Source: Alphaproteobacteria bacterium
GTDB taxonomy: Bacteria > Pseudomonadota > Alphaproteobacteria > RF32 > CAG-239
DNA: 64,000 nt
Reading direction: 5' to 3'
NCBI GenBank assembly: GCA_017445475.1
Contig: JAFSUB010000001.1
Coordinates: 14,834 to 78,833 of the forward strand
In this document: piece by piece, positions 20,747-53,541 of the stretch
Numbering within the stretch: position 1 is the first letter of the stretch
Layout of the letters: each line of letters begins with the position of its first letter
The notes under the pieces: generated by a model
Seen by the model: only the letters and a program-made list of their open reading frames with translations
Databases searched by the model: none
What the model was told of the DNA's origin: nothing
Made by a program: the position numbers and the translations under genes

Positions 20747-21856
20747 ATGGCATATAAAGATTATAAGGCAGATGTTGTAAACACAGATGTTTATCTGCTT
20801 GCAAAAGCGCTCGGGTTTGTTTTGTCTCGCACGCCGAAAAATGAAAACGATGTTAATCTTGTTCTTGAAGACATTACAAAATATATTCAAAATCACGAAA
20901 TAACCGAAAAAGAAGCGGCCACTTTGAGCGATGACCAAAAAACGCTTTTAGACGATATTCTAAAACCCAAAGAAGAAACACAGGAAAAATCGGTTTCAAG
21001 AAATGAAACCTTAAATGTGGGGCTCGCGCCTTCTGAAGAGCCGGCAATTGACAACACTTGGATTGAAGAAGAGCGCAAGCTTTGGGAAGAATTTGCCGCT
21101 CAAGTTAATCTGTTTTATGATGAAGAAGACAAAGACAACACCTCCAAAACATCGCTTAAATTTGCTTTAAGCCAAGACGGTGTGTCGCAAGGCGATTTAG
21201 TTTTTATAAGCCGAAATCATTGTCAGGTTGATGCAGATTCAAAATTTGTGATATATCAAGGGCTTGTTGAAACTGCCTTGAAAAAGGACTTGTCATTAAC
21301 TTTTGACCAGTCTTTAGATGAAAAACAACAGTTGATGCTCTTGGCTGCCGTTTTGAAAAATGAGAATCGTTATGAAAACGGCGATAAACTGGAAGTTATC
21401 AATGCGCCGAAAATAGATGAGAATACCTTAAAGTCGGAAGCTTTCAAGGGGCTTGATAAAGACGTGCAGGAAATTTTGAAAGAACAAATCAAACGTCAAA
21501 ATAAGGCACAAAAAGCAGAAAACAAAGAGCAAACGCAGCATGAGAAGAATTTGGAGAAAATCGAAGAGCTGAAAGAAAAAATCTTAAGGGAAAAAGATAG
21601 CGATAAACGCTATAAGCTTCGTCAAAAACAGGCGGCTCTTCAATATCAAAATCTTTCTGATGAGCGCAAAGCGCAAAGAGATAAAGAGCTTTTAGAACGC
21701 GACAGGATTGCCGCTGCGCGTGCCGGCATAACAGAGCCCTATCAAACCAAAAACAAAGGCGGTCAGGATTGGACCGTTCAAGAAGATGGAAACGCGCGCT
21801 ATTCGAAAGAATATCTTGATGTTCTGAAACGAAAATTCGCCAAAGAGAACGATTAA
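20747..21856 (+). CDS. hypothetical charged (K/E/D-rich) protein
   Basis: 369-aa ORF with coiled-coil-like charged C-terminal half; no recognisable domain. Confidence 0.4.
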   Translation: MAYKDYKADVVNTDVYLLAKALGFVLSRTPKNENDVNLVLEDITKYIQNHEITEKEAATLSDDQKTLLDDILKPKEETQEKSVSRNETLNVGLAPSEEPAIDNTWIEEERKLWEEFAAQVNLFYDEEDKDNTSKTSLKFALSQDGVSQGDLVFISRNHCQVDADSKFVIYQGLVETALKKDLSLTFDQSLDEKQQLMLLAAVLKNENRYENGDKLEVINAPKIDENTLKSEAFKGLDKDVQEILKEQIKRQNKAQKAENKEQTQHEKNLEKIEELKEKILREKDSDKRYKLRQKQAALQYQNLSDERKAQRDKELLERDRIAAARAGITEPYQTKNKGGQDWTVQEDGNARYSKEYLDVLKRKFAKEND

Positions 21857-30430: not shown

Positions 30431-30575
30431 TAAATTATTTTTTTGATAAAAAGATTGTTTTTTTGAGTTTTGCTGACAAAAAATGCCAAAAAAAACAAAA
30501 AAGTGCTTGATTGTAGCGTTTGTTTTTGCTATAACGGAATCAGGGACAAAACTTTGATTTGGAAGGACTTAAGAT

Positions 30576-31094
30576 ATGACAATCAAATCATTTGATGAAA
30601 TGTATGCACAACAGGGCGAAAGGCTTGCTGAAGACTTTGGTAAAGACAAAACTGAAGCCATTTTACATGATGCAAGAAAAATATATGAAACGCTTAAAAC
30701 GCCGGAAGCTATTGATGAGTTTGCCAAATCTGGTTATGAAAAGAGACAAGAAATGGTTAAGGGATTATCCGGTAAACATTTCGTTGGTATGGGACTTGCT
30801 CATAAATTAGCCCGTGATTACGCAGAATATGTTCAAAAAGAGCAACCTCAACCCGTTTTACAAAAGCCTCAAGCAAGTGTTTATGCCGATAAGGTCAGAT
30901 CGAAGATAGAACGAAACGAAAAACATATGCAAAAAGCGCCGAGCTTAAAGGGGATATCAGGGGCTGTTGTTGCCGATGAAATTGCTAAAAGGCTAATTTC
31001 AGGCGAAGAAAATCGTGTTATCACGCCGGAAGTCGGCAAAGAGTTATCCGATTCCATTAAAAAGTCTTGGGCACAAAACAAGCAAAACGTTTAA
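30576..31094 (+). CDS. hypothetical protein
   Basis: 172-aa charged soluble ORF with RBS GGAAGGA; no recognisable domain. Confidence 0.4.
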   Translation: MTIKSFDEMYAQQGERLAEDFGKDKTEAILHDARKIYETLKTPEAIDEFAKSGYEKRQEMVKGLSGKHFVGMGLAHKLARDYAEYVQKEQPQPVLQKPQASVYADKVRSKIERNEKHMQKAPSLKGISGAVVADEIAKRLISGEENRVITPEVGKELSDSIKKSWAQNKQNV

Positions 31095-31278
31095 ATGATG
31101 CAAAAAACGCCTCATCTTTTAAGCTGGGGCGTTTTTTGCGTTTTTTTAATAAAAAGACTTGCAAATTTAAAAAGATGGGGGTATAAGGCATTCACGATGT
31201 TTTTTGTAAAACATCGCAAGAAAAGAAGCCGGAGACTTCTTGCACAAAAAGAAAATTATTGTAAAACATATCAAATAA

Positions 31279-31355
31279 CGGGACGTAGTTCAGCCTGGTA
31301 GAGCGCTTGCATGGGGTGCAAGAAGCCGGAGGTTCAAATCCTCTCGTCCCGACCA
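31279..31355 (+). tRNA. tRNA-Pro (anticodon GGG)
   Basis: Cloverleaf: acceptor CGGGACG/CGTCCCG, U8, D-arm GTTC..GAGC, anticodon stem CTTGC/GCAAG, loop AUGGGGU, T-arm GGAGGTTCAAATCCTCT, discriminator A plus encoded CCA; CGG..CGACCA ends typical of bacterial tRNA-Pro. Confidence 0.85.
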
Positions 31356-31363
31356 TAAAACAC

Positions 31364-31397
31364 AAAGCCTGCCCTTGGGGCGGGCTTTGTGTTTTAT
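31364..31397 (+). terminator. intrinsic terminator after tRNA-Pro
   Basis: AAAGCCTGCCC/GGGCGGGCTTT hairpin followed by TGTGTTTT. Confidence 0.5.
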
Positions 31398-31411
31398 TAT
31401 AACGAAGTGAT

Positions 31412-31427
31412 GGGATTTGAACCTCCG
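31412..31427. repeat. inverted partial copy of tRNA-Pro T-arm
   Basis: Minus strand reads CGGAGGTTCAAATCCCA, a 15/15 match to the tRNA T-arm at 31327-31341; not part of a complete tRNA. Confidence 0.4.
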
Positions 31428-31539
31428 AAAAAGGAGGTTCACAACCAGCGAAAGCGAGACTTTAAGTATCGCGGTCGTTTAAAAAAAACGATGAGCGCCT
31501 GTGCGACCGAGCTTTTTTTATAAAAAGCGAAGGCCAAAA

Positions 31540-31554
31540 CTCTCGTCCCGACCA
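31540..31554. repeat. direct repeat of tRNA-Pro 3' end (att-like scar)
   Basis: CTCTCGTCCCGACCA is identical to tRNA positions 31341-31355 and sits 185 bp downstream, again followed by a terminator hairpin. Confidence 0.55.
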
Positions 31555-31556
31555 AT

Positions 31557-31588
31557 AAAAAAGCCACCGTTTGGTGGCTTTTTTGTTG
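31557..31588 (+). terminator. intrinsic terminator
   Basis: AAGCCACC/GGTGGCTT hairpin followed by TTTTTGTTGG. Confidence 0.5.
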
Positions 31589-31632
31589 GTAAGACAGGAA
31601 TCTCCGGCTTTTTGCAAAGAGCCGAAAGAAAG

Positions 31633-33195
31633 TTATCTATGAAGTTCATGATAATAGGTCTTCATTTTGCGGCGCAAATTCACAAAATCTTGCGGCACGG
31701 AATGATAACCTATGGCATAACGATTAGCGTCTGGGTTCCAATAGCCGTAAGCATAAGAGGCATAGCAAACGCGTAGAGCAATTTCAGGTGATGCTGACTT
31801 GGCGGTAAATTTAATGTTCTTTTTGTCATTGCAATAGGGTTCTCTAAAAAACCTCACTTGCTTAATCAGCCCCATTTGCCATAAATGATAAACAGCTAAA
31901 CCTAAGTTTTTATGATCTTGATGCTGATTTTCACCATTGGCAAAATAAATGGAGGCTACCATCGCGTCAGCGCCATATTGCTTTAGATATTGCACAATTA
32001 TTTTTTCGGCAAAATCTGCCTTCAAAGTGCCGTCAACAGCGCGTTGCGGTAAAATATGTATGTTTTCCGGCGCCACACCCAATATCCGGCAGCTTTCGAT
32101 AAACTCGGCATCTCTGGCGCTTATAAACTCTTGCTCGCTTAATTGACAGTGATGGTGGCCGCTGTGCAAAGCACAATCTTGCCCGTCATTTAAGCGTGAT
32201 CTCACGCAAGATTTGGATCCGTCCGTGCACAAAACAACATGCACGTCATTACCCTTTTGGGCTTCAAAGCAAATATCAATTCCCATGCTCAAAAGTTCAT
32301 CGTCTTGGTGCGGCACAAAATATAAAATTGTGTTTGCTTGTGCGGGTTTGGGCCGAGTTGCCCCGTTTCCATCAAAGGAATCAGCAAAAATTTTTTGCCG
32401 GAAGCAGTCTTTGCCGAATTTTGAATCGAACCAATTTCTGATTTTTTCTAAATTTATATCATTGCCGCCGCGCAAGGTATTATCATAAAATAACCCAATC
32501 TGCTGTGAATTTTTGACATATCGCAAACTCTTAAAAGGGCGCGGTTGAACCACCGGCACATGTGATAAAACTTCAACGGTTTTCAGCCACAAATCGTCCG
32601 TATACAAGCTCAGGTTTTTAATCAAATTTTCATCAAAATATTGCAAATCAAGCAGTCTCGGCGGAAACAGCGAACCGGCGCCGTTTGTTGCCAGCAAACG
32701 CATTGATGGAACACCGATAATTTCATTTTGCTCGTAGGTGAAACGAGCATAAGGCGCAAATTTTTCACCTTGAGGATGCATCACATGGCTCCGCATTGCC
32801 GAAACCGCATGTGGAAATTTTTGATAAGATGCCAACAAACATTTGATCATATCACGCGGATAAATTAAATCATCATCAACCGTAATGACAATGCTGTCGC
32901 GATATTTTTGCAAAGCATAAAAGTATTTTTTATGCGGTTTTAAATCTTGACACCATTCAATGCAAATTTTGTTTTTTTTCGCAAGGTTAACCAGATAGGC
33001 AGGCAGGTCGTCTTCTCGACGAGGAAATTCCGATGTTGCAAGCCACAAAACAATCTTATCCGGTTTTTTGTTTTGCTTAAATATCGATTTTAAAACCGGT
33101 TGCAAACGGTTCATCCGCGGCGGATAAGAAGTCATGGAAACAATAATTTCCGGTGTGTGCTTTTTTTGCCGCCAAAGCTCAAAAATACCGAACAT
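31633..33195 (-). CDS. bifunctional-looking glycosyltransferase (DxD) / LmbE(PIG-L)-family deacetylase fusion
   Basis: N-terminal GT-A-like region with VITVDDDLIYP; C-terminal region with ILYFVPHQDDELLSMG and HQDH (zinc-binding HxDD / HxxH of PIG-L/LmbE deacetylases). Confidence 0.6.
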   Translation of the reverse strand: MFGIFELWRQKKHTPEIIVSMTSYPPRMNRLQPVLKSIFKQNKKPDKIVLWLATSEFPRREDDLPAYLVNLAKKNKICIEWCQDLKPHKKYFYALQKYRDSIVITVDDDLIYPRDMIKCLLASYQKFPHAVSAMRSHVMHPQGEKFAPYARFTYEQNEIIGVPSMRLLATNGAGSLFPPRLLDLQYFDENLIKNLSLYTDDLWLKTVEVLSHVPVVQPRPFKSLRYVKNSQQIGLFYDNTLRGGNDINLEKIRNWFDSKFGKDCFRQKIFADSFDGNGATRPKPAQANTILYFVPHQDDELLSMGIDICFEAQKGNDVHVVLCTDGSKSCVRSRLNDGQDCALHSGHHHCQLSEQEFISARDAEFIESCRILGVAPENIHILPQRAVDGTLKADFAEKIIVQYLKQYGADAMVASIYFANGENQHQDHKNLGLAVYHLWQMGLIKQVRFFREPYCNDKKNIKFTAKSASPEIALRVCYASYAYGYWNPDANRYAIGYHSVPQDFVNLRRKMKTYYHELHR

Positions 33196-33204
33196 AAACA
33201 GATT

Positions 33205-33741
33205 CTAAATTTCAAGCGCATATATATCTTTAACGCGCCAATCCTCACCGTTTGGCACCAAAACATAAATGATTCGTCCTTGACACAATCCAAACCAATT
33301 GCCATCACAGGTGCTGTCTGTATGAATTTCAACCAAATCTGCCGCAATCGGCTTAATTTTTGCAATTTTAAAGCTCATTTTGGTCGGGCGATTTAAGGAT
33401 TCGTCTGTCATAAAAATAAACTTCGGAAGCTTTGATTCGCGACAGCCGGCATAGTCCGGATTTAAGGTGCATTTAACGGCAAATTCAACGGCGCAAGCCA
33501 TCTGGCTGTCTAAAGAACACTTGTTTGAAAGCTTGTCTGCCTGATAATCGTATGTTTTATCACCAAAAACTTTTGCCGCAATAACAGGTGGTTCGTCTGA
33601 ATTTACAATCGGTGCTGAAACCTTTGTTTTCCATGCATATAAACCAACTAAAATAACAATCATTAACACGAACGCAACAATTTTTTTAATCATTTCGCTT
33701 TTTATCTCCTCTTGTTTTAATTGATTGATAACCTTTTTCAC
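33205..33741 (-). CDS. hypothetical Cys-rich exported/membrane-anchored protein
   Basis: Signal-anchor IVAFVLMIVILVGLYAW; seven Cys in the mature part. Confidence 0.4.
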   Translation of the reverse strand: MKKVINQLKQEEIKSEMIKKIVAFVLMIVILVGLYAWKTKVSAPIVNSDEPPVIAAKVFGDKTYDYQADKLSNKCSLDSQMACAVEFAVKCTLNPDYAGCRESKLPKFIFMTDESLNRPTKMSFKIAKIKPIAADLVEIHTDSTCDGNWFGLCQGRIIYVLVPNGEDWRVKDIYALEI

Positions 33742-33842: not shown

Positions 33843-34463
33843 ATGGGTTTTGAAAAGAAAAGCAACCAAAACGGTCGAACCATTGTCGAGCTGATTGCGT
33901 ATATCGTTGTGATGGTTGCGATAACGGCGTCGGTTGCGCAAATTGTTGCGCAAGGATTGCATAAATATGAAAGCAGTGCCGTTTTGCAACAGCTTCTTGA
34001 TTTGAAAAAGGTTATTGCGGCGCGTTATGCGGCCGACGGAAACTATCAAAATCTTTCATGGAATGATTTGTGCGCAGACAGAATCGGCCCGAAATCTTTA
34101 ATGCCCGAAACGGATGATTCAACCGGAGAATGCGCCGCCCAACATGGCCGCCACATTTTTGACGGAATCGTTCGTATCGGCTCTGCCGACGTCGGAAAAA
34201 CCTATTACATCGAATTTCAAGAATTGCCTCAAGACGTTTGCGTGCAGCTTGGAACAATTGTTTGGAGCAATATGGACGGTTCTGATTTAGACCGTATGAT
34301 TATCGGGCAAGGCGCAAGTTTGCAAAATCCGAAAACGTGGGTTTGGCAATATTCACCTGTGTCCGAAGCAGACGGCGACAAAGAGCTTCCGGCAAACATC
34401 AGAGATGTTGCTGATTCGTGCACAAGCGAAGATGACAACACCATAAGGTGGTATTTCAACTAA
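33843..34463 (+). CDS. type IV pilin-like protein (prepilin-type N-terminus)
   Basis: Short basic leader ending in G, then RTIVELIAYIVVMVAI with Glu at mature position +5 (class III signal-peptide architecture); Cys pair near C-terminus. Confidence 0.6.
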   Translation: MGFEKKSNQNGRTIVELIAYIVVMVAITASVAQIVAQGLHKYESSAVLQQLLDLKKVIAARYAADGNYQNLSWNDLCADRIGPKSLMPETDDSTGECAAQHGRHIFDGIVRIGSADVGKTYYIEFQELPQDVCVQLGTIVWSNMDGSDLDRMIIGQGASLQNPKTWVWQYSPVSEADGDKELPANIRDVADSCTSEDDNTIRWYFN

Positions 34464-44272: not shown

Positions 44273-45754
44273 GTGCCGCTTGTTAAAGCAAAGAAACAAA
44301 AAATGATGAAATATTTGAAAAAATATCCCTTCGAGGTTTTTCTTGTTGTTCATTTTGCGCTGTGGAGCTTTGTGCCCCTTTTGCGCAAAAGTTTGCCGAT
44401 GGACAGCATTGAAGCCGTTTCTTGGGGAATGTATTGCGATTTAGGCACCAATAAACACCCGCCTTTGTCGGGTTGGCTTGCCGATTTTTTTTATAGTGTC
44501 ATAGGTTTTGAAACGCCGTTTTCTATATATGCCTTAAGCCAGTTCTGTGTTGTTTTGGGCTTTATATACGTTTTTCGCCTGTCTTGGCTTTTTGTTTCAA
44601 AAGAAAAAGCCGTTTTGGCGGCAATGCTTTTGGAAGGCGTGATATATTACGGCTTTTCGTCGCTTGAATATAACGTCAATGTGGTTTCGCTTGCTCTGTG
44701 GCCGATGTCGGCTTATTACTTTTATAAAGCCGTTAAAAGCAACAAGACGCTTGATTGGGCTTTAACGGGAGCGTTTGCCGGCTTAAATCTTCTCAACAAA
44801 TACACGAGTTTTGTTTTGCTTTTTTCTATGGCGCTTTATATGCTTTTTGATAAAAAAGCGCGTTCAAGGCTCAAAACTTTGAGGCCTTATCTAGCGGCTA
44901 TTGTTTGTGTGATGATTGTGATGCCCCATCTTTTGTGGCTTTATAAACATGACTTTTTTGTTATGAGCTATTTTATGGGACGAGGCGGTCAGGGCAGTTT
45001 TGAAAATATGCCGCTCTTAAAACACATTGTCTATCCCTTAAAATTTATCGGTGCGCAGATTTTGTTTTCAGCGGGAACGCTTTTGATATATTTTTCTGCG
45101 GTGCGCGGCGAACGCAGAACATCAACGCCGCATGAAAAGAGCGACATCAATTTTTTGATTTATATGGGTGTTTTGCCGGTTTTTTTCATGTTTTGCATCA
45201 GTTTGGTGTTTGGGCTTAAGCTTAAAAGTATGTGGGGTTTTCCGAGCCTTTACCTTTTAGGGCTGATTTTGATGGTTTTCTTTGCTTATCAAACGACAGA
45301 GCGCTTGAAAAAAAAGCTGACAGCCGGTGTATATGTGCTGATGTTTGTGTTTGCATTGGCGCAACTGCTTGTCATATCTCTCAACAAAAGCGACAAGTTT
45401 CAGCTCGAGGTCAAAAAATACGGACAAACGATTGAAGCTCTTTGGGCGCAAAACTCCGATAAACCCTTTGAATATGTGGCAGGCGATGTGTGGTGGGCAA
45501 ACAACGCGGCGCTTTTTGCGCCTTCCAAGCCCAAGCCCGTGATTTGGGGCGATGTGAGGCAAAACCCGTGGTTTGACGCAAAAGACATTGAAGATAAAGG
45601 CGCGCTTGTTTTAAGTTCTGATGAGGCGACATATTTTCAAATGCAACAAAAACTCGGGTTTGAGGGAAAACCGCAGATTTTGCGCATTAAAGTGCAAAAC
45701 AGGTTCAAAAAAACGAAAGAAAAAACGATTTATTACGGGTTTTATAACAACTAA
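44273..45754 (+). CDS. ArnT-like (GT39/GT83) polyprenyl-phosphate-sugar:lipid A glycosyltransferase
   Basis: ~12-TM protein with PMT/ArnT-type N-terminal loop (DSIEAVSWGM...HPPLSGW) and C-terminal periplasmic domain; heads an operon with a GT2 and a YdjC deacetylase. Confidence 0.75.
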   Translation: MPLVKAKKQKMMKYLKKYPFEVFLVVHFALWSFVPLLRKSLPMDSIEAVSWGMYCDLGTNKHPPLSGWLADFFYSVIGFETPFSIYALSQFCVVLGFIYVFRLSWLFVSKEKAVLAAMLLEGVIYYGFSSLEYNVNVVSLALWPMSAYYFYKAVKSNKTLDWALTGAFAGLNLLNKYTSFVLLFSMALYMLFDKKARSRLKTLRPYLAAIVCVMIVMPHLLWLYKHDFFVMSYFMGRGGQGSFENMPLLKHIVYPLKFIGAQILFSAGTLLIYFSAVRGERRTSTPHEKSDINFLIYMGVLPVFFMFCISLVFGLKLKSMWGFPSLYLLGLILMVFFAYQTTERLKKKLTAGVYVLMFVFALAQLLVISLNKSDKFQLEVKKYGQTIEALWAQNSDKPFEYVAGDVWWANNAALFAPSKPKPVIWGDVRQNPWFDAKDIEDKGALVLSSDEATYFQMQQKLGFEGKPQILRIKVQNRFKKTKEKTIYYGFYNN

Positions 45755-45766
45755 AAGGAAAAGAAA

Positions 45767-46726
45767 ATGAAAACGGTCAGCATTGTCATTTCGGCTTATA
45801 ACGAAGAAGGAAACATTGAAAAGCTTTATGAAGAACTCACCAAAGAGCTTGATAAAGCAAGCGATGTTTGTTTTGAAATTTTGTTTGTCAACGATGGCAG
45901 TCAAGACGGAACATACCAAAAAATTCAAGCCTTAATTGAAAAAGATGAGCGCGTTAAAATGGTGAACTTAAAGCGAAACTTCGGCCATGAAATTGCGATG
46001 ACGGCCGGAATGGATTATGCCAAAGGCGATGCGGTGATTTTTATGGACGCAGATTTGCAGCATCCGCCGGTTTATATCCCTGAGATGATTGACGCATGGC
46101 AAAAAGGAAGCCAAATTGTGCTTACAAAGCGTGTTGATAATGTGGCCACCTCATGGTTTTACAAACTTTGCGCCAAAACCTTTTATGTGGCGCTTAATCT
46201 GCTTTCGGAAACAAAAATTGGCGAAAGTATGCCCGATTTCAGATTAATTGACCGCCGATATGTCGATTTTTTGAAAGGCTTTAACGAGCAGGACAGGCTG
46301 TTTCGGGGGTTGCTGAGCTGGATTATGCCTCATGACAATGTGAAAGTGATTGATTTTGTTGCGCCTGAGCGTTTTTCGGGCAAAACAAAATATAATTTTA
46401 TCAAAAGCCTGCAGCTTGCCATCAGCAGCATCACGCAATTTTCGGTTCGACCATTGCGCCTTGCGACATATTTGGGCTTTGCCGGTGCGGCGTGTTCGGT
46501 TTTGTTGGGGCTGTATGTGATTTTTGAGCATTTTATTCAACATAATCCGACGCCCGGATATGCAACCATTGTGTCGGTTGTTGGGTTTGTCGGTGCATTG
46601 CAGCTTATCACGCTCGGTATTGTCGGTGAATATATCGGCAAAATCCACATGGAAGTGAAAAAGCGTCCGCTTTATTTGGCAGATCTGATTGAACAAGAAC
46701 GTAAGGACAACAATCTTGAGCGGTAA
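45767..46726 (+). CDS. GT2 polyprenyl-phosphate hexosamine/sugar synthase (ArnC/DPM1-like)
   Basis: VSIVISAYNEEGNI, DGSQDGT, DADLQHPP motifs; two C-terminal TM helices. Confidence 0.8.
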   Translation: MKTVSIVISAYNEEGNIEKLYEELTKELDKASDVCFEILFVNDGSQDGTYQKIQALIEKDERVKMVNLKRNFGHEIAMTAGMDYAKGDAVIFMDADLQHPPVYIPEMIDAWQKGSQIVLTKRVDNVATSWFYKLCAKTFYVALNLLSETKIGESMPDFRLIDRRYVDFLKGFNEQDRLFRGLLSWIMPHDNVKVIDFVAPERFSGKTKYNFIKSLQLAISSITQFSVRPLRLATYLGFAGAACSVLLGLYVIFEHFIQHNPTPGYATIVSVVGFVGALQLITLGIVGEYIGKIHMEVKKRPLYLADLIEQERKDNNLER

Positions 46727-48017
46727 AATCATTTTCAACGCCGATGATTTCGGAATGACACAAGGTGTGAATGCCGCCATTCAAAAAGCCTATAACGAAG
46801 GCATTTTAAATTCGGCAAGTTTGATGGTGGGGCAAAAATATGCCCTCAAAGCCGTTCAAATGGCAGAGAAAATGCCGCATTTAGAGCTGGGGCTTCATGT
46901 TAATTTAACGAATGAACATCCGATTCTTGATAAAAAAGAACTGCCGCTTCTTGTCGGCAAAGACGGCAAGTTCAAAAACGGTTTCTTAAAGCTGTTGCTC
47001 TTGTCTTTTTTGCGCCCGAAGGCTCTAAAAAAAGAGGTGTGTGCGGAAATTCGGGCGCAAATTGAAAAAGCCCAAAAAATGGGCGTCAAACTCCATCATA
47101 TCGACAGCCATCGTCATGTTCATATGATTCCGCTCATTTTTGAAGTGATGCTTGACTTAAAAGAAAAATACGGCATCGGGCGCATTCGTGTGATAAACGA
47201 ATCAATCGTTCAAACGCTTCGCACCAACAAAAGCAAAAGTTTTTTGTTTGACGGCGGTTTGATTAAATATTTTCTTTTAAGGTTTTTTTGTATCTTAAAC
47301 GGGTTTGAAACAAACACATATTTTTACACAATGCTTTATACGTGCAAACTTTCAAAAGATCATTTTCAAAAGGTTTTGGTGCCCAAAGGCTATGAGGCTG
47401 TGGAGATTATGATTCACCCGTCAATTACAAGCATTGACAAACAAAATATGCAAGATGTGTTTGATAAAAGCGTTCTTTTACCTTGGCGTGAAAAAGAGCT
47501 TGAAACACTTTTGGATAAAAGCATTTTAAAAAACTTTGTTTTCGGTGCTTGTTTCCCGTTTTTGTTTGAGCTTTACTTTAAGGTTGAAAAATGGTGGTTT
47601 AAACACATTTCTGAAAAAATGCGTTTTTTGCTTGTGGGCGGCTTTAATACGGTTTTTGCATATGCTGTTTACGCGCTTTTGCTTGAAATTATCGGTTTGC
47701 CTTATTTGTGGGCGCTTATTGTGCAATATTTTATTTCGGTGAATGTGTCGATTGCAACCATGCGTTATTATGTTTTTCAAAGCAAGGGCAATATGCTTGC
47801 CGAATTTTTAAAAGCGTGGAGTGTTTACATCGGTTTGTTTTTTTTAAATACTGTCGGGCTTGCGTTTTTGGTTGAAGTTTTAAAAATCGGTGCGCTTTTT
47901 GCACAAGGCATATATCTTGTTTTTTCAACAATTATCACATATTTGCTGCACAAATATTTTTCTTTTAAGAAGGCATTAAAGAAAAATAAAGACTCTGCCG
48001 TATATCATAAGAAATAA
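46689..48017 (+). CDS. YdjC-family carbohydrate deacetylase fused to GtrA-like membrane domain
   Basis: N-terminal FNADDFGMTQGVNAAI, HIDSHRHVH (YdjC/ChbG metal site); C-terminal 4-TM GtrA-like segment (RFLLVGGFNTVFAYAVYALL). Confidence 0.65.
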   Translation: MNKNVRTTILSGKIIFNADDFGMTQGVNAAIQKAYNEGILNSASLMVGQKYALKAVQMAEKMPHLELGLHVNLTNEHPILDKKELPLLVGKDGKFKNGFLKLLLLSFLRPKALKKEVCAEIRAQIEKAQKMGVKLHHIDSHRHVHMIPLIFEVMLDLKEKYGIGRIRVINESIVQTLRTNKSKSFLFDGGLIKYFLLRFFCILNGFETNTYFYTMLYTCKLSKDHFQKVLVPKGYEAVEIMIHPSITSIDKQNMQDVFDKSVLLPWREKELETLLDKSILKNFVFGACFPFLFELYFKVEKWWFKHISEKMRFLLVGGFNTVFAYAVYALLLEIIGLPYLWALIVQYFISVNVSIATMRYYVFQSKGNMLAEFLKAWSVYIGLFFLNTVGLAFLVEVLKIGALFAQGIYLVFSTIITYLLHKYFSFKKALKKNKDSAVYHKK

Positions 48018-49434: not shown

Positions 49435-50325
49435 ATGGATATTTCAGAACACATATACACCTGCGCGGCATTTAAGGTAAATGCCGAAAAACTTACAGAA
49501 CTCAAGGCATTTTTCAGCGATTTTCCAATTAAAGATGCGCAAGATTGGCCGATGTGCGCAACAAAGAAAAACGGCGAACCGCGATATGTGCGTGTTCAGG
49601 TTCAAGGCGACCGGTTCGGTTTTGAAAAAGCGCTGTATTTGGCGTTTGAGTGTGAAGCCGGCAATGCGAAATATATGATTGCTCAAAAGCTTAAATATGA
49701 TGATGCTTTGCAAATAGAACTTGATTGTATCAGACGCGTTGATAAAAAAGAAAAAACAACCAGTCGATTTGTTTTTCACTTAATGGAACAATACAGCCGT
49801 TTTTTGAAACAATTTGCTTTAACAAGCACTGCTCAAAAAGAAGACACATACCTTAGGCTTGAAGCCCATTCCGGTGTGGCAGACGGTTTTCAAACAAACG
49901 GTGGTTATGTGTGGGCGACGCATCGGTTTGATTTTGAAAATGAAGATGAACTTCTGCGCACGCGTGAAGCTTTCAAGGAGTATGCCTTAAAAAACGGTGT
50001 TGAAATTGAGGAAAAAGACCTTCGCTTGTTTCAATATCCGTGTCATTTTGCGGCTTTTCGCACAAACAAAAAAATTGACGGGCAAAATCTCGGCAAAGCC
50101 TTTTTGCTTCAATATTCATGGCAGGGCAAAATGACGGCAGCCATGTCGGAGAAGTGTGAAATTGCGCGTTATGAACGCACGTTTTATAAACAAAACAAAT
50201 TGGAGGCGGAAAAAGAACTTTCGCCACGTTTTTTGAAAATGATGAAAAAATATAACAAATCGCAAAACCCGACAAAGAACATATTTATGCGCCTTTTTGA
50301 AAACAAAAAACTGCGTGTGCGTTAA
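49435..50325 (+). CDS. hypothetical protein
   Basis: 296-aa ORF translationally coupled to the preceding lipoprotein gene; no recognisable domain. Confidence 0.4.
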   Translation: MDISEHIYTCAAFKVNAEKLTELKAFFSDFPIKDAQDWPMCATKKNGEPRYVRVQVQGDRFGFEKALYLAFECEAGNAKYMIAQKLKYDDALQIELDCIRRVDKKEKTTSRFVFHLMEQYSRFLKQFALTSTAQKEDTYLRLEAHSGVADGFQTNGGYVWATHRFDFENEDELLRTREAFKEYALKNGVEIEEKDLRLFQYPCHFAAFRTNKKIDGQNLGKAFLLQYSWQGKMTAAMSEKCEIARYERTFYKQNKLEAEKELSPRFLKMMKKYNKSQNPTKNIFMRLFENKKLRVR

Positions 50326-50393: not shown

Positions 50394-51494
<1,101 letters not shown>

Positions 51495-51497
51495 TTT

Positions 51498-52583
51498 ATG
51501 TTTAAGACGCCGTTTTTTAAGAAGAAAAAACCCTTTTTAAAAAAAGATTTGAAACAAGCGCCCAATTATGCGGCGATTGATTTGGGCACAAATTCGTGCC
51601 GTTTGGTGATTGCGACGCCGACACCGACCTCGTTTCACGTTGTTGAAACGTTTTCTAAAATTACACGATTGGGCGAGGGCATCATCAAAGATAACGAACT
51701 TTCCAAAGCGGCCATGCGGCGCACAGTGAACACCTTAAAAGTTTGCAAAAGCGTGATGGACGAATATGCGCCAATTACCCGTTCAAGGTTTGTGGCAACG
51801 GCAGCCTGCCGAAGGGCAAAAAACTGTGCCGAGTTTTTGGCAATGGTTCAAAAAGAGGCGGGCATTAAGCTTGAAATTATTTCGCCGCAGGAAGAAGCAA
51901 GACTTGCCGTTGTCGGGTGTGTGCCGCTTCTAAACCGCAACATTAAGCGTGCGCTTATTTTTGACATCGGCGGCGGTTCAACGGAAATTTCACTTGCGCG
52001 TGTAACCGAAGAAGGCAAAACATTTATTGAAGGGTACGTTTCGCTTCCCTACGGCGTTGTTACAATCTCGGAAGCTTTTCCGAAGCAGGAAATGACCAAT
52101 TTGGCCTATAACACCATTATTGAACGCACACACGGCATTTTGGCGGAGTTTGATGAAAAATACGGTGTGTATGAAGGCATTAAAAATCAAGAAATACAGG
52201 TTATCGGAACATCGGGAACCGTAACGGTTTTGGGCGCGGTTCATTTGGGGCTTGTGCGCTATAACCGTTCGGCGGTTGACGGCCTTTCAATTTCGGGTGC
52301 AGATGTTGAAAACGTGATTAACAAAATTAAAAATATGGGTGATGCCGGCAGGCGTAAACATCGGTGTATCGGTCCGATGAAGGCTGATTTAACCATTTCC
52401 GGTTGTGCCATTATCGAAGCACTGTTGACAATTTTCCCCATCTCGGAAATTACAATTGCAGACCGAGGAATCCGCGAGGGAATTTTGCTTGATATGATTC
52501 ACAATGAAAAGCGTGACAGAAAACATAAAAAGAAAAATTTTAAATCACATCCGCATCACAAAAGGAGAGCAAATGAAGGATAA
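51498..52583 (+). CDS. Ppx/GppA-family phosphatase (paralog 1, actin-like domains only)
   Basis: AIDLGTNSCRLVIA, DIGGGSTE, EALL motifs; no HD domain; basic C-terminal tail. Confidence 0.75.
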   Translation: MFKTPFFKKKKPFLKKDLKQAPNYAAIDLGTNSCRLVIATPTPTSFHVVETFSKITRLGEGIIKDNELSKAAMRRTVNTLKVCKSVMDEYAPITRSRFVATAACRRAKNCAEFLAMVQKEAGIKLEIISPQEEARLAVVGCVPLLNRNIKRALIFDIGGGSTEISLARVTEEGKTFIEGYVSLPYGVVTISEAFPKQEMTNLAYNTIIERTHGILAEFDEKYGVYEGIKNQEIQVIGTSGTVTVLGAVHLGLVRYNRSAVDGLSISGADVENVINKIKNMGDAGRRKHRCIGPMKADLTISGCAIIEALLTIFPISEITIADRGIREGILLDMIHNEKRDRKHKKKNFKSHPHHKRRANEG

Positions 52584-53541
52584 AGTTCTTGCGAGCATTG
52601 ATTTGGGTTCCAATTCTTGTCGCCTCAGAATTGCAACGCTTGAGGGCAATCTCCTTTATAAAGATTCGAAGCCGACCAAATTGGGCGAGGGATTGTTTCA
52701 AACCAAAAAATTGAGTGCGGATTCTATGAACCGTGCACTTGCGGTTTTTCAAGATTTTGCGGAAAAGATGAAGGCACACCATGTTGAAGCCTATCGGGCA
52801 ATTGCAACGGCGGCCTGTCGAATGGCGCAAAACGGGAAGATGTTTGCAAACGAAGTTGAAAAGCAAACAGGTATTAAAATTGAAATTATCGACACAAAAG
52901 AGGAAGCAAGGCTCAACTTAAAAGGTGCTTTGTTCAACGCTCCGAAAGAAAGCGAATATGTTGTGGTTTATGATTTAGGCGGCGCCTCAACCGAAATAAC
53001 GCTTGCAAAAAACAACGCTTCGTGCGAAATTTTGCACACCATCTCAATTCCGCTCGGTGCGCGCAACGCTTCAGAAGGCTATGATTTGCGGGAGTTTCAG
53101 CTTAAAAAAGCTCAAAAGCTTTCAGACGATATTAAAGGTTATGTTCAAGCTTTTATTGAAGATTCACACTTAAAAGATTATCAGGATAAATGTTGCCTGA
53201 TTGCAACCTCAAGCACGCCCTTGCGCCTTTGCTCAATGGTTCATCACGACGGTTTTTATGCGCGCGAAAAAAATGATGGTAAAATCTTAAAAACAACCGA
53301 TGTAGACAAGGCCGTTCAAACCTGCTGTGAAATGAGCCTTGCCGAACGCGCAAATTCGCCGTATGTCGGAAGCGACAGAGCTTCTGTTTTTGTGGCAGCC
53401 TGTGTGATTTTTAAAAGCATTTACGACACGCTCGGTTTTAGAGAGCTGACCGTATCATTCAAGGGGGCGCAATACGCCATGTTAGAGGAGTTAAGAAATG
53501 CCGAAACTGACAAAGTCCGCAAAGCTTGTTCGCGGTCATAA
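52573..53541 (+). CDS. Ppx/GppA-family phosphatase (paralog 2)
   Basis: SIDLGSNSCRLRIA, DLGGASTE; ATG at 52573 with AAAGGAGAG RBS overlaps the end of paralog 1. Confidence 0.75.
   Translation: MKDKVLASIDLGSNSCRLRIATLEGNLLYKDSKPTKLGEGLFQTKKLSADSMNRALAVFQDFAEKMKAHHVEAYRAIATAACRMAQNGKMFANEVEKQTGIKIEIIDTKEEARLNLKGALFNAPKESEYVVVYDLGGASTEITLAKNNASCEILHTISIPLGARNASEGYDLREFQLKKAQKLSDDIKGYVQAFIEDSHLKDYQDKCCLIATSSTPLRLCSMVHHDGFYAREKNDGKILKTTDVDKAVQTCCEMSLAERANSPYVGSDRASVFVAACVIFKSIYDTLGFRELTVSFKGAQYAMLEELRNAETDKVRKACSRS

Follow-up and report, generated by a model that had tools for sequence, protein, structure and literature searches.

The subject of this report is a single gene on the minus strand (31633..33195) of a 64,000-nucleotide stretch of DNA from an alphaproteobacterium (GenBank assembly GCA_017445475.1, contig JAFSUB010000001.1), hereafter called the window. 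The gene encodes a protein of 520 amino acids (aa) in which a GT-A glycosyltransferase (GT) domain is followed by a de-N-acetylase domain of the PIG-L/LmbE family. Both folds are recognizable and their catalytic motifs are intact, the fusion is conserved among relatives, and the same pairing of domains recurs elsewhere. We put the probability at roughly 0.6 that this is a bifunctional enzyme which adds an alpha-linked N-acetylhexosamine (HexNAc) to an envelope glycan or lipid-linked acceptor and then, through its PIG-L domain, de-N-acetylates the sugar it has added. Most likely this is known two-step chemistry on an N-acetylhexosamine, probably N-acetylglucosamine (GlcNAc), that is found here in fused form, which is tidy and no surprise for a specialist.

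An intact gene for a two-domain protein

The gene and its parts, as delimited from the list of open reading frames (ORFs), the homologs and an AlphaFold2 model, are as follows.

31633..33195, minus strand: bifunctional ORF of 520 aa (GT-A domain, linker and PIG-L domain)
32383..33159, minus strand: GT-A glycosyltransferase domain, KfiA/PmHS2/EXTL-like, aa 13-271, with the DxD motif D107-D108-D109
32341..32382, minus strand: linker, aa 272-285, predicted disordered (pLDDT <50; homolog alignment)
31636..32340, minus strand: PIG-L/LmbE (CE14-type) de-N-acetylase domain, aa 286-520

The reading frame starts with ATG and fills the interval exactly and without interruption. The AlphaFold2 model, built on an alignment of 25 sequences, has a mean pLDDT of 84.8 and consists of two compact domains (aa 13-271 and 286-520) joined by a 14-residue linker (aa 272-285) that scores below 50; the corresponding columns of the homolog alignment are gapped, not conserved and variable in length. 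The pTM of the whole model is 0.60, probably reflecting an undefined orientation between the domains. The first-pass annotation, which was made from the letters of the window, had placed a glycosyltransferase of about 250 aa and an LmbE/PIG-L deacetylase of about 200 aa on one polypeptide, and both domains are indeed present at roughly these sizes, with their folds and catalytic motifs. The protein has no transmembrane segment, signal peptide or hydrophobic stretch (maximum KD19 1.04) and is therefore predicted to be soluble and cytoplasmic.

That the frame might be two genes fused by a sequencing error is ruled out by 27 independent full-length homologs from independent assemblies and by the presence of the same ORF, in a 97%-identical copy, on three independent contigs. 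Recent horizontal acquisition of the gene as island cargo at tRNA-Pro is likewise unsupported: its GC content is ordinary (41.3%, and 40.7% at third codon positions, vs 41.9% for the window) and it is syntenic in relatives of 87% and 97% identity, among which only the spacer around tRNA-Pro differs in this region.

The deacetylase domain

The C-terminal domain is a true member of the PIG-L/LmbE family, as its profile score, its fold and its catalytic residues all show. Residues 291-437 match the PIG-L profile of Pfam (PF02585) at E=7.7e-18 and cover positions 1-127 of the 129 in the profile; the score of 65.7 bits exceeds the gathering cutoff, 28.2, and the profile search upholds the domain named in the first-pass annotation. 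The predicted structure has the Rossmann-like alpha/beta fold of LmbE-type proteins. The two motifs of the family are PHQDDELL (aa 295-302, with H296, D298 and D299) and HQDH (aa 425-428, with H425 and H428), and the H296-Q-D298-D299-E segment lines up with H-P-D-D-E of MshB. H296, D298, D299, E300, H425, D427 and H428 are invariant in the 25-sequence alignment. H296, D299 and H428 are predicted zinc ligands, D298 the catalytic base and H425 a further catalytic residue.

The domain is part of a subfamily of its own, which is marked by an insertion, C-x2-H-x3-H, and by the conserved motif W-x-P...RY-x-IGYHS near the C-terminus. C341, H344 and H348 of this subfamily-specific insertion are nearly invariant, C323 and C369 are invariant, and the insertion is absent from P0040, one of the proteins with reversed domain order described below. 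The region (aa 323-369, window about 32089..32229, minus strand) may form a second, structural metal site. The NCBIfam equivalog models for BshB1, MshB and Mca are not reached (TIGR04001, 18.3 bits vs 182.5; TIGR03445, 14.0 vs 224.35; TIGR03446, 11.4 vs 277.15).

The glycosyltransferase domain

The first-pass annotation had called the N-terminal half a GT-A glycosyltransferase on the strength of the motif VITVDDDLIYP (aa 103-113). A Pfam search leaves the call short of threshold, with 20.5 bits against a gathering cutoff of 23.3 for Glycos_transf_2 (PF00535, CAZy GT2), while a sequence match to KfiA and the predicted fold sustain it. KfiA (5z8b), which serves as alpha-GlcNAc transferase when E. 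coli K5 makes heparosan, is the top match among sequences of solved structures, at E=8e-6 with the single sequence and 3.4e-6 with a family profile, and the DDD motifs of the two proteins line up in the alignment. D107-D108-D109 is invariant across the 25 homologs of 49-97% identity, and in the predicted structure aa 13-271 adopt a GT-A fold with the DxD after the fourth beta-strand. In a comparison of folds, the four best structural neighbours are PmHS2, KfiA, EXTL3 and EXTL2, all of them retaining alpha-1,4-HexNAc transferases that take part in making heparosan or heparan; the nearest structural neighbours among glycosyltransferases are those of GT45 and GT64. In sequence searches PmHS2 matches the domain at E=0.056, and a weak GT64 match in Pfam (17 bits vs 21.3) is found in a single homolog, the stand-alone GT domain of P0107.

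The family to which this domain belongs is large. It has 1,114 representatives at E<=1e-30 in a library clustered at 50% identity, and its carriers include gut Clostridia, Collinsella, Bifidobacterium, Methanomassiliicoccaceae and others. Cultured strains of Bifidobacterium, Collinsella and Coprococcus are among those with the GT domain, and no cultured strain with a fused homolog was identified. Among the matches collected, 206 of 261 are GT-only, and members are often preceded by a GT2 domain in an arrangement like that of the PmHS-type bifunctional synthases. There is a slim chance that the whole family is a Pfam-unrecognised group of heparosan/heparan-type alpha-GlcNAc transferases common in gut anaerobes, which together with the PIG-L fusion would yield alpha-GlcNAc glycans containing N-unsubstituted glucosamine (GlcN). 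If true, gut and rumen microbes would make heparosan-like or other alpha-GlcNAc glycans with N-unsubstituted glucosamine, and bacteria would have their own equivalent of N-deacetylation, the step that opens heparan sulfate modification; it might serve to mimic the host or to modulate charge.

Fusions in both orders and split genes

Full-length homologs with the same domain order, GT then PIG-L, number 27 in a large protein database (502-545 aa, 49-97% identity); their named sources are metagenome-assembled genomes (MAGs) labelled "Alphaproteobacteria bacterium" from the rumen, the pig and other gut samples. Public records tag them merely as "PIG-L family deacetylase", the transferase half being missed because the GT domain lies below Pfam thresholds. 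In the clustered library the same-order clade comes down to essentially one representative, and the clade is therefore narrow.

The reverse order, PIG-L then GT, is found in 13 proteins (including P0028-P0034, P0039, P0040 and P0044), which occur in Clostridia. Each of their domains is 34-46% identical to its counterpart in the 520-aa protein, and the HxDD...HxxH residues are kept. In neighbor-joining trees, one for each domain, these proteins and the same-order clade do not form sister groups: the GT domain of the 520-aa protein lies nearer to GT-only multidomain proteins than to the reverse-order fusions, and its PIG-L domain nearer to the GT-less PIG-L proteins P0057, P0116 and P0175. Because the two types are not sister in the trees, the fusions in the two orders are suggested to have arisen independently.

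Homologs split into two genes also exist, as the first-pass annotation had considered. In a rumen MAG of Endomicrobiaceae (L018, 7932..9695), a GT gene of 340 aa and a PIG-L gene of 242 aa are adjacent, co-directional and in the same frame, with a single stop codon and 12 nt between them; the GT protein ends in a basic C-terminal tail. In the trees both proteins nest within the fused clade, which is otherwise alphaproteobacterial, so this pair could be a secondary split, the ancestral state or the result of transfer between phyla. At seven further loci (L019, L022, L026, L027, L032, L066 and L068) the two domains likewise have separate genes, which lie a few kb apart at most. Taken as comparative sequence evidence, the reverse-order fusions, their probably independent origins and the split neighbours indicate that the GT and PIG-L domains are functionally coupled.

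Gene neighbourhoods in other lineages

The reverse-order fusions lie inside large glycopolymer clusters that encode an ABC-2 transporter pair, phosphotransferases of the Stealth and TagF-like types, and numerous multidomain proteins with GT2, GT4, GT8 and GT10 domains. Directly 3' of the fusion gene, a gene of the ROK family (sugar kinase or regulator) occurs in two different Firmicutes-type glycopolymer clusters (L009, 12345..13229; L010/L011, 11361..12242). Because these distant homologs belong to ABC-transporter glycopolymer clusters, the product of the 520-aa enzyme would by analogy most likely be a cell-envelope glycan, and in this Gram-negative gut alphaproteobacterium our best guess for the target is the lipopolysaccharide (LPS) core, the O-antigen or a capsule.

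The alphaproteobacterial fusion genes are solitary and their neighbours change from lineage to lineage. The gene follows directly after an NAD-salvage operon in two lineages and has a DegT aminotransferase gene as neighbour in one. LicD, IspD and GNAT genes are its neighbours in another (L006), the GNAT gene 123 nt downstream; a Mac/Hexapep acyltransferase gene lies 13 nt downstream in L095, and a divergent polysaccharide deacetylase gene and, within 1 kb, a Hexapep acyltransferase gene accompany it in L092. No operon partner is conserved beyond the genus in nine alphaproteobacterial contexts and in tblastn searches with the neighbouring proteins.

Solitary genes, some of them directly behind an NAD-salvage operon, are also what a small-molecule pathway might look like, in which a mycothiol-, bacillithiol- or aminoglycoside-like route would make GlcN-X from malate, inositol or a cyclitol. 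The first-pass annotation had framed the protein in terms of mycothiol, bacillithiol and GPI-type pathways; MshB, BshB and BtrD do belong to the PIG-L family, and weak partial matches to BshB1, MshB and Mca extend over the N-terminal HxDD motif. The framing does not hold up well, however: the equivalog models give 11-18 bits where 182-277 would be needed, the fused transferase is a KfiA-like GT-A enzyme and not a GT4 (GT-B) enzyme like MshA, BshA, BtrM and PIG-A, no cysteine ligase was seen in the neighbourhoods examined, and clusters of polysaccharide or teichoic-acid-like type surround the distant fused homologs. We consider such a pathway very improbable.

The acyltransferase genes beside the fusion bear on a different idea, namely that the free amine is an intermediate which a separate acyltransferase re-acylates, leaving a non-acetyl N-acyl hexosamine in the final glycan. 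This would extend the transfer-then-deacetylate reading and not exclude it. Among proteins that lack the GT, the nearest relatives of the PIG-L domain (P0057, P0116 and P0179, 448-455 aa) are extended at the C-terminus by about 200 aa, and a weak FR47/GNAT match falls in this region (P0057, E=0.008). These GNAT-like relatives, together with the acyltransferase genes next to the fusion in three alphaproteobacterial lineages, hint at re-acylation of the freed amine in some organisms. For the protein in the window we hold it to be improbable, as no acyltransferase gene lies near the gene there or in close relatives, Mac/Hexapep enzymes are usually O-acetyltransferases, and the GNAT match is weak.

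Proposed mechanism and order of the reactions

We infer the donor sugar, the stereochemistry, the order of the reactions and the acceptor of the fusion enzyme as follows. The GT-A domain would use a UDP-HexNAc donor, most likely UDP-GlcNAc, and place an alpha-linked HexNAc onto a lipid-linked or growing glycan at the cytoplasmic face. The tethered PIG-L/LmbE domain, a zinc hydrolase, would next strip the N-acetyl group and leave a free-amine hexosamine (GlcN). A coupled transfer and de-N-acetylation had been proposed in the first-pass annotation, and it is now a plausible and better supported reading, given the fusions in both orders, the split genes and the HexNAc transferases among the structural relatives.

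The two steps might also run the other way round. The PIG-L domain would then first deacetylate GlcNAc of the acceptor (e.g., undecaprenyl-diphosphate-linked GlcNAc, Und-PP-GlcNAc, or a GlcNAc-lipid), after which the GT domain would attach a sugar, not necessarily a HexNAc, to the GlcN-acceptor. Biosynthesis of glycosylphosphatidylinositol (GPI) follows this course, with de-N-acetylation before mannosylation. Fusion and co-occurrence data give a functional linkage and not an order of reactions, both domain orders occur, and the donor specificity of the GT is assigned tentatively, by likeness of sequence and fold. Yet the nearest structural relatives of the GT are all HexNAc transferases, fitting a role as supplier of the substrate of the deacetylase, and for most PIG-L enzymes that have been characterised the substrate is the alpha-GlcNAc compound which a preceding GT has made, as in MshA/MshB, BshA/BshB, PIG-A/PIG-L and BtrM/BtrD. 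We therefore regard the reversed order as unlikely and prefer transfer followed by deacetylation.

Several points weigh against the proposed mechanism. The sequence similarity to KfiA is confined to the nucleotide-binding half of the domain (about 110 aa, 28 bits), and donor specificity and anomeric outcome are read from a ranking of folds. The neighbor-joining trees are midpoint rooted and carry no bootstrap support. Many genomes have either domain with the other not within 8 kb, and thus the coupling is not obligatory. The alphaproteobacterial fusions, finally, sit in no conserved neighbourhood of glycan genes.

The neighbourhood in the window

Near the fusion gene and further along the window we delimited the following features.

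33205..33693, minus strand: upstream gene for a membrane-anchored, Cys-rich protein of 162 aa (ATG at 33693; 178 aa if read from GTG at 33741)
31532..31553, minus strand: hairpin resembling a terminator, with a T-run after it, about 80 nt past the fusion stop (consensus scan only)
33843..34463, plus strand: orphan gene for a type IV pilin-like protein (Pfam PilS 27.4 bits, Bundlin 22.8 bits)
44273..48017, plus strand: three consecutive genes, for a PMT_2/ArnT-like GT-C protein of 493 aa, a GT2 protein of 319 aa and a YdjC-GtrA protein of 442 aa in which a YdjC deacetylase is joined to the transmembrane domain GtrA

The upstream gene is co-directional with the fusion gene, and its stop sits 9 nt ahead of the fusion start; it is a probable operon partner, in the source genus only. 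Its product has an N-terminal membrane anchor (KD19 2.37 at residue 17) and no family match in Pfam. The hairpin comes from a scan that is weak overall, with 3 sites vs 5.2 expected from shuffles.

The pilin-like gene, whose product begins with a hydrophobic helix, lies between dksA and the pair formed by the 162-aa and fusion genes, from which it is divergent, about 650 bp upstream of the fusion gene. No pilus assembly genes are found near it, and a T2SSE-family ATPase is distant (3615..4937). The first-pass annotation had taken this pilin and a supposed tRNA integration scar as grounds for glycosylation of a surface structure, and the layout of the pilin is indeed kept in the same-genus contigs L001-L003 and L094 (the 87% and 97% relatives). 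The pilin and the 162-aa gene are, however, absent from every other fusion-bearing locus examined by tblastn with the neighbouring proteins, the neighbourhood being wholly different in nine other alphaproteobacterial loci, and synteny at 87-97% identity means mere shared ancestry. The fusion protein is moreover predicted to be cytoplasmic, with no oligosaccharyltransferase partner nearby. From these comparisons, the adjacency appears to be shared ancestry inside the genus and not a functional association, and we find it extremely improbable that the enzyme glycosylates the adjoining pilin or another surface protein.

No sugar-nucleotide genes, the sort of neighbour that the first-pass annotation had thought worth looking for, adjoin the fusion gene in the window. 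The nearest glycan genes are those of the ArnT/GT2/YdjC-GtrA cluster at 44273..48017, 11 kb off, and the remainder of the window is housekeeping (ftsZ/A/Q, murB, ftsW, mraY, pnp, rpsO, truB, dksA, maf, rng, yidC and aspS). Judging by a YidC with periplasmic domain and by the ArnT/GT2/YdjC-GtrA cluster, the organism is Gram-negative. The cluster looks like the LgmABC / FlmF2-NaxD-FlmK type, putting a free-amine hexosamine on lipid A or another periplasmic acceptor, and would then be a second, unrelated transfer-then-deacetylate pathway in the same window. Its YdjC-GtrA fusion may be notable in its own right.

Past the stop of the fusion gene, close relatives differ in the spacer around tRNA-Pro(GGG) (31279..31355) (30455..31632 in the window vs 7470..9462 in L001 and 7554..9387 in L094). 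An ADP-ribosylglycohydrolase gene that is convergent with and overlaps the fusion 3' end in L001 and L094 is absent from the window, and a 172-aa ORF (30576..31094) shared by the window and L094 is replaced by a 160-aa ORF in L001. Elsewhere in the window are three large ORFs (60235..62865, minus strand, 876 aa; 20747..21856, plus strand, 369 aa; 49435..50325, plus strand, 296 aa) for which Pfam gives no match at E<=1e-2 to 1e-4, a tandem pair of Ppx/GppA paralogs (51498..53541) and, at 50397..51494, a CcrM-like N6/N4 DNA methylase that includes a RAMA domain.

Significance

If the proposed mechanism is true, one polypeptide puts a positively charged glucosamine into a surface glycan, a task for which other bacteria need two proteins such as MshA/MshB, similar pairs, or WabN with WabH, a GT4-type enzyme. 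Hexosamines with a free amine alter the charge of the surface, how cationic peptides are resisted and how the immune system recognises the cell. The fusion would then be a compact module, widely shared in gut and rumen, that is relevant to host-microbe interaction and a possible tool for glyco-engineering. For annotation, its value lies in the transferase half that public records of the homologs overlook.

Comparison with known systems

In the literature on PIG-L/LmbE-glycosyltransferase fusions or bifunctional enzymes and on KfiA/GT45, we found no description of a fusion between a GT and a PIG-L domain. The closest relatives of the GT domain are KfiA of E. coli K5, the GlcNAc-transferase domain of PmHS2 (GT45) and EXTL2/EXTL3 (GT64), with a sequence similarity of about 20% that covers only the first half of the domain. 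The KfiA and PmHS2 systems have a GlcA-transferase partner (KfiC or a GT2 domain), whereas none is fused or adjacent in the window, and none of the known heparosan/heparan enzymes has a PIG-L domain, unlike the fusion. N-deacetylation in animals is carried out by NDST enzymes, which are unrelated to PIG-L. On the deacetylase side, MshB, BshB, PIG-L, Dbv21/Orf2* and diacetylchitobiose deacetylase (LmbE/PIG-L, CE14) are 15-22% identical to the PIG-L domain of the fusion; characterised members of the family stand alone, whereas this domain is joined to a GT.

The logic of transfer and then deacetylation to a free-amine hexosamine on the envelope is likewise seen in LgmABC of Bordetella and FlmF2-NaxD-FlmK of Francisella, where Und-P-HexNAc synthesis is followed by YdjC deacetylation and ArnT-like transfer. 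These systems use a membrane GT2, a YdjC deacetylase and a GT-C across the membrane, families that are unrelated to those of the fusion. The closest functional precedent is found in Klebsiella, where WabH (a GlcNAc transferase) and WabN (an LPS-GlcNAc deacetylase) equip the outer core of the LPS with alpha-GlcN (PMC8552709), the same logic as proposed here and also in a Gram-negative envelope glycan. WabH and WabN are two separate proteins, whereas the fusion is one chain, and the likeness would be one of analogy and not of membership.

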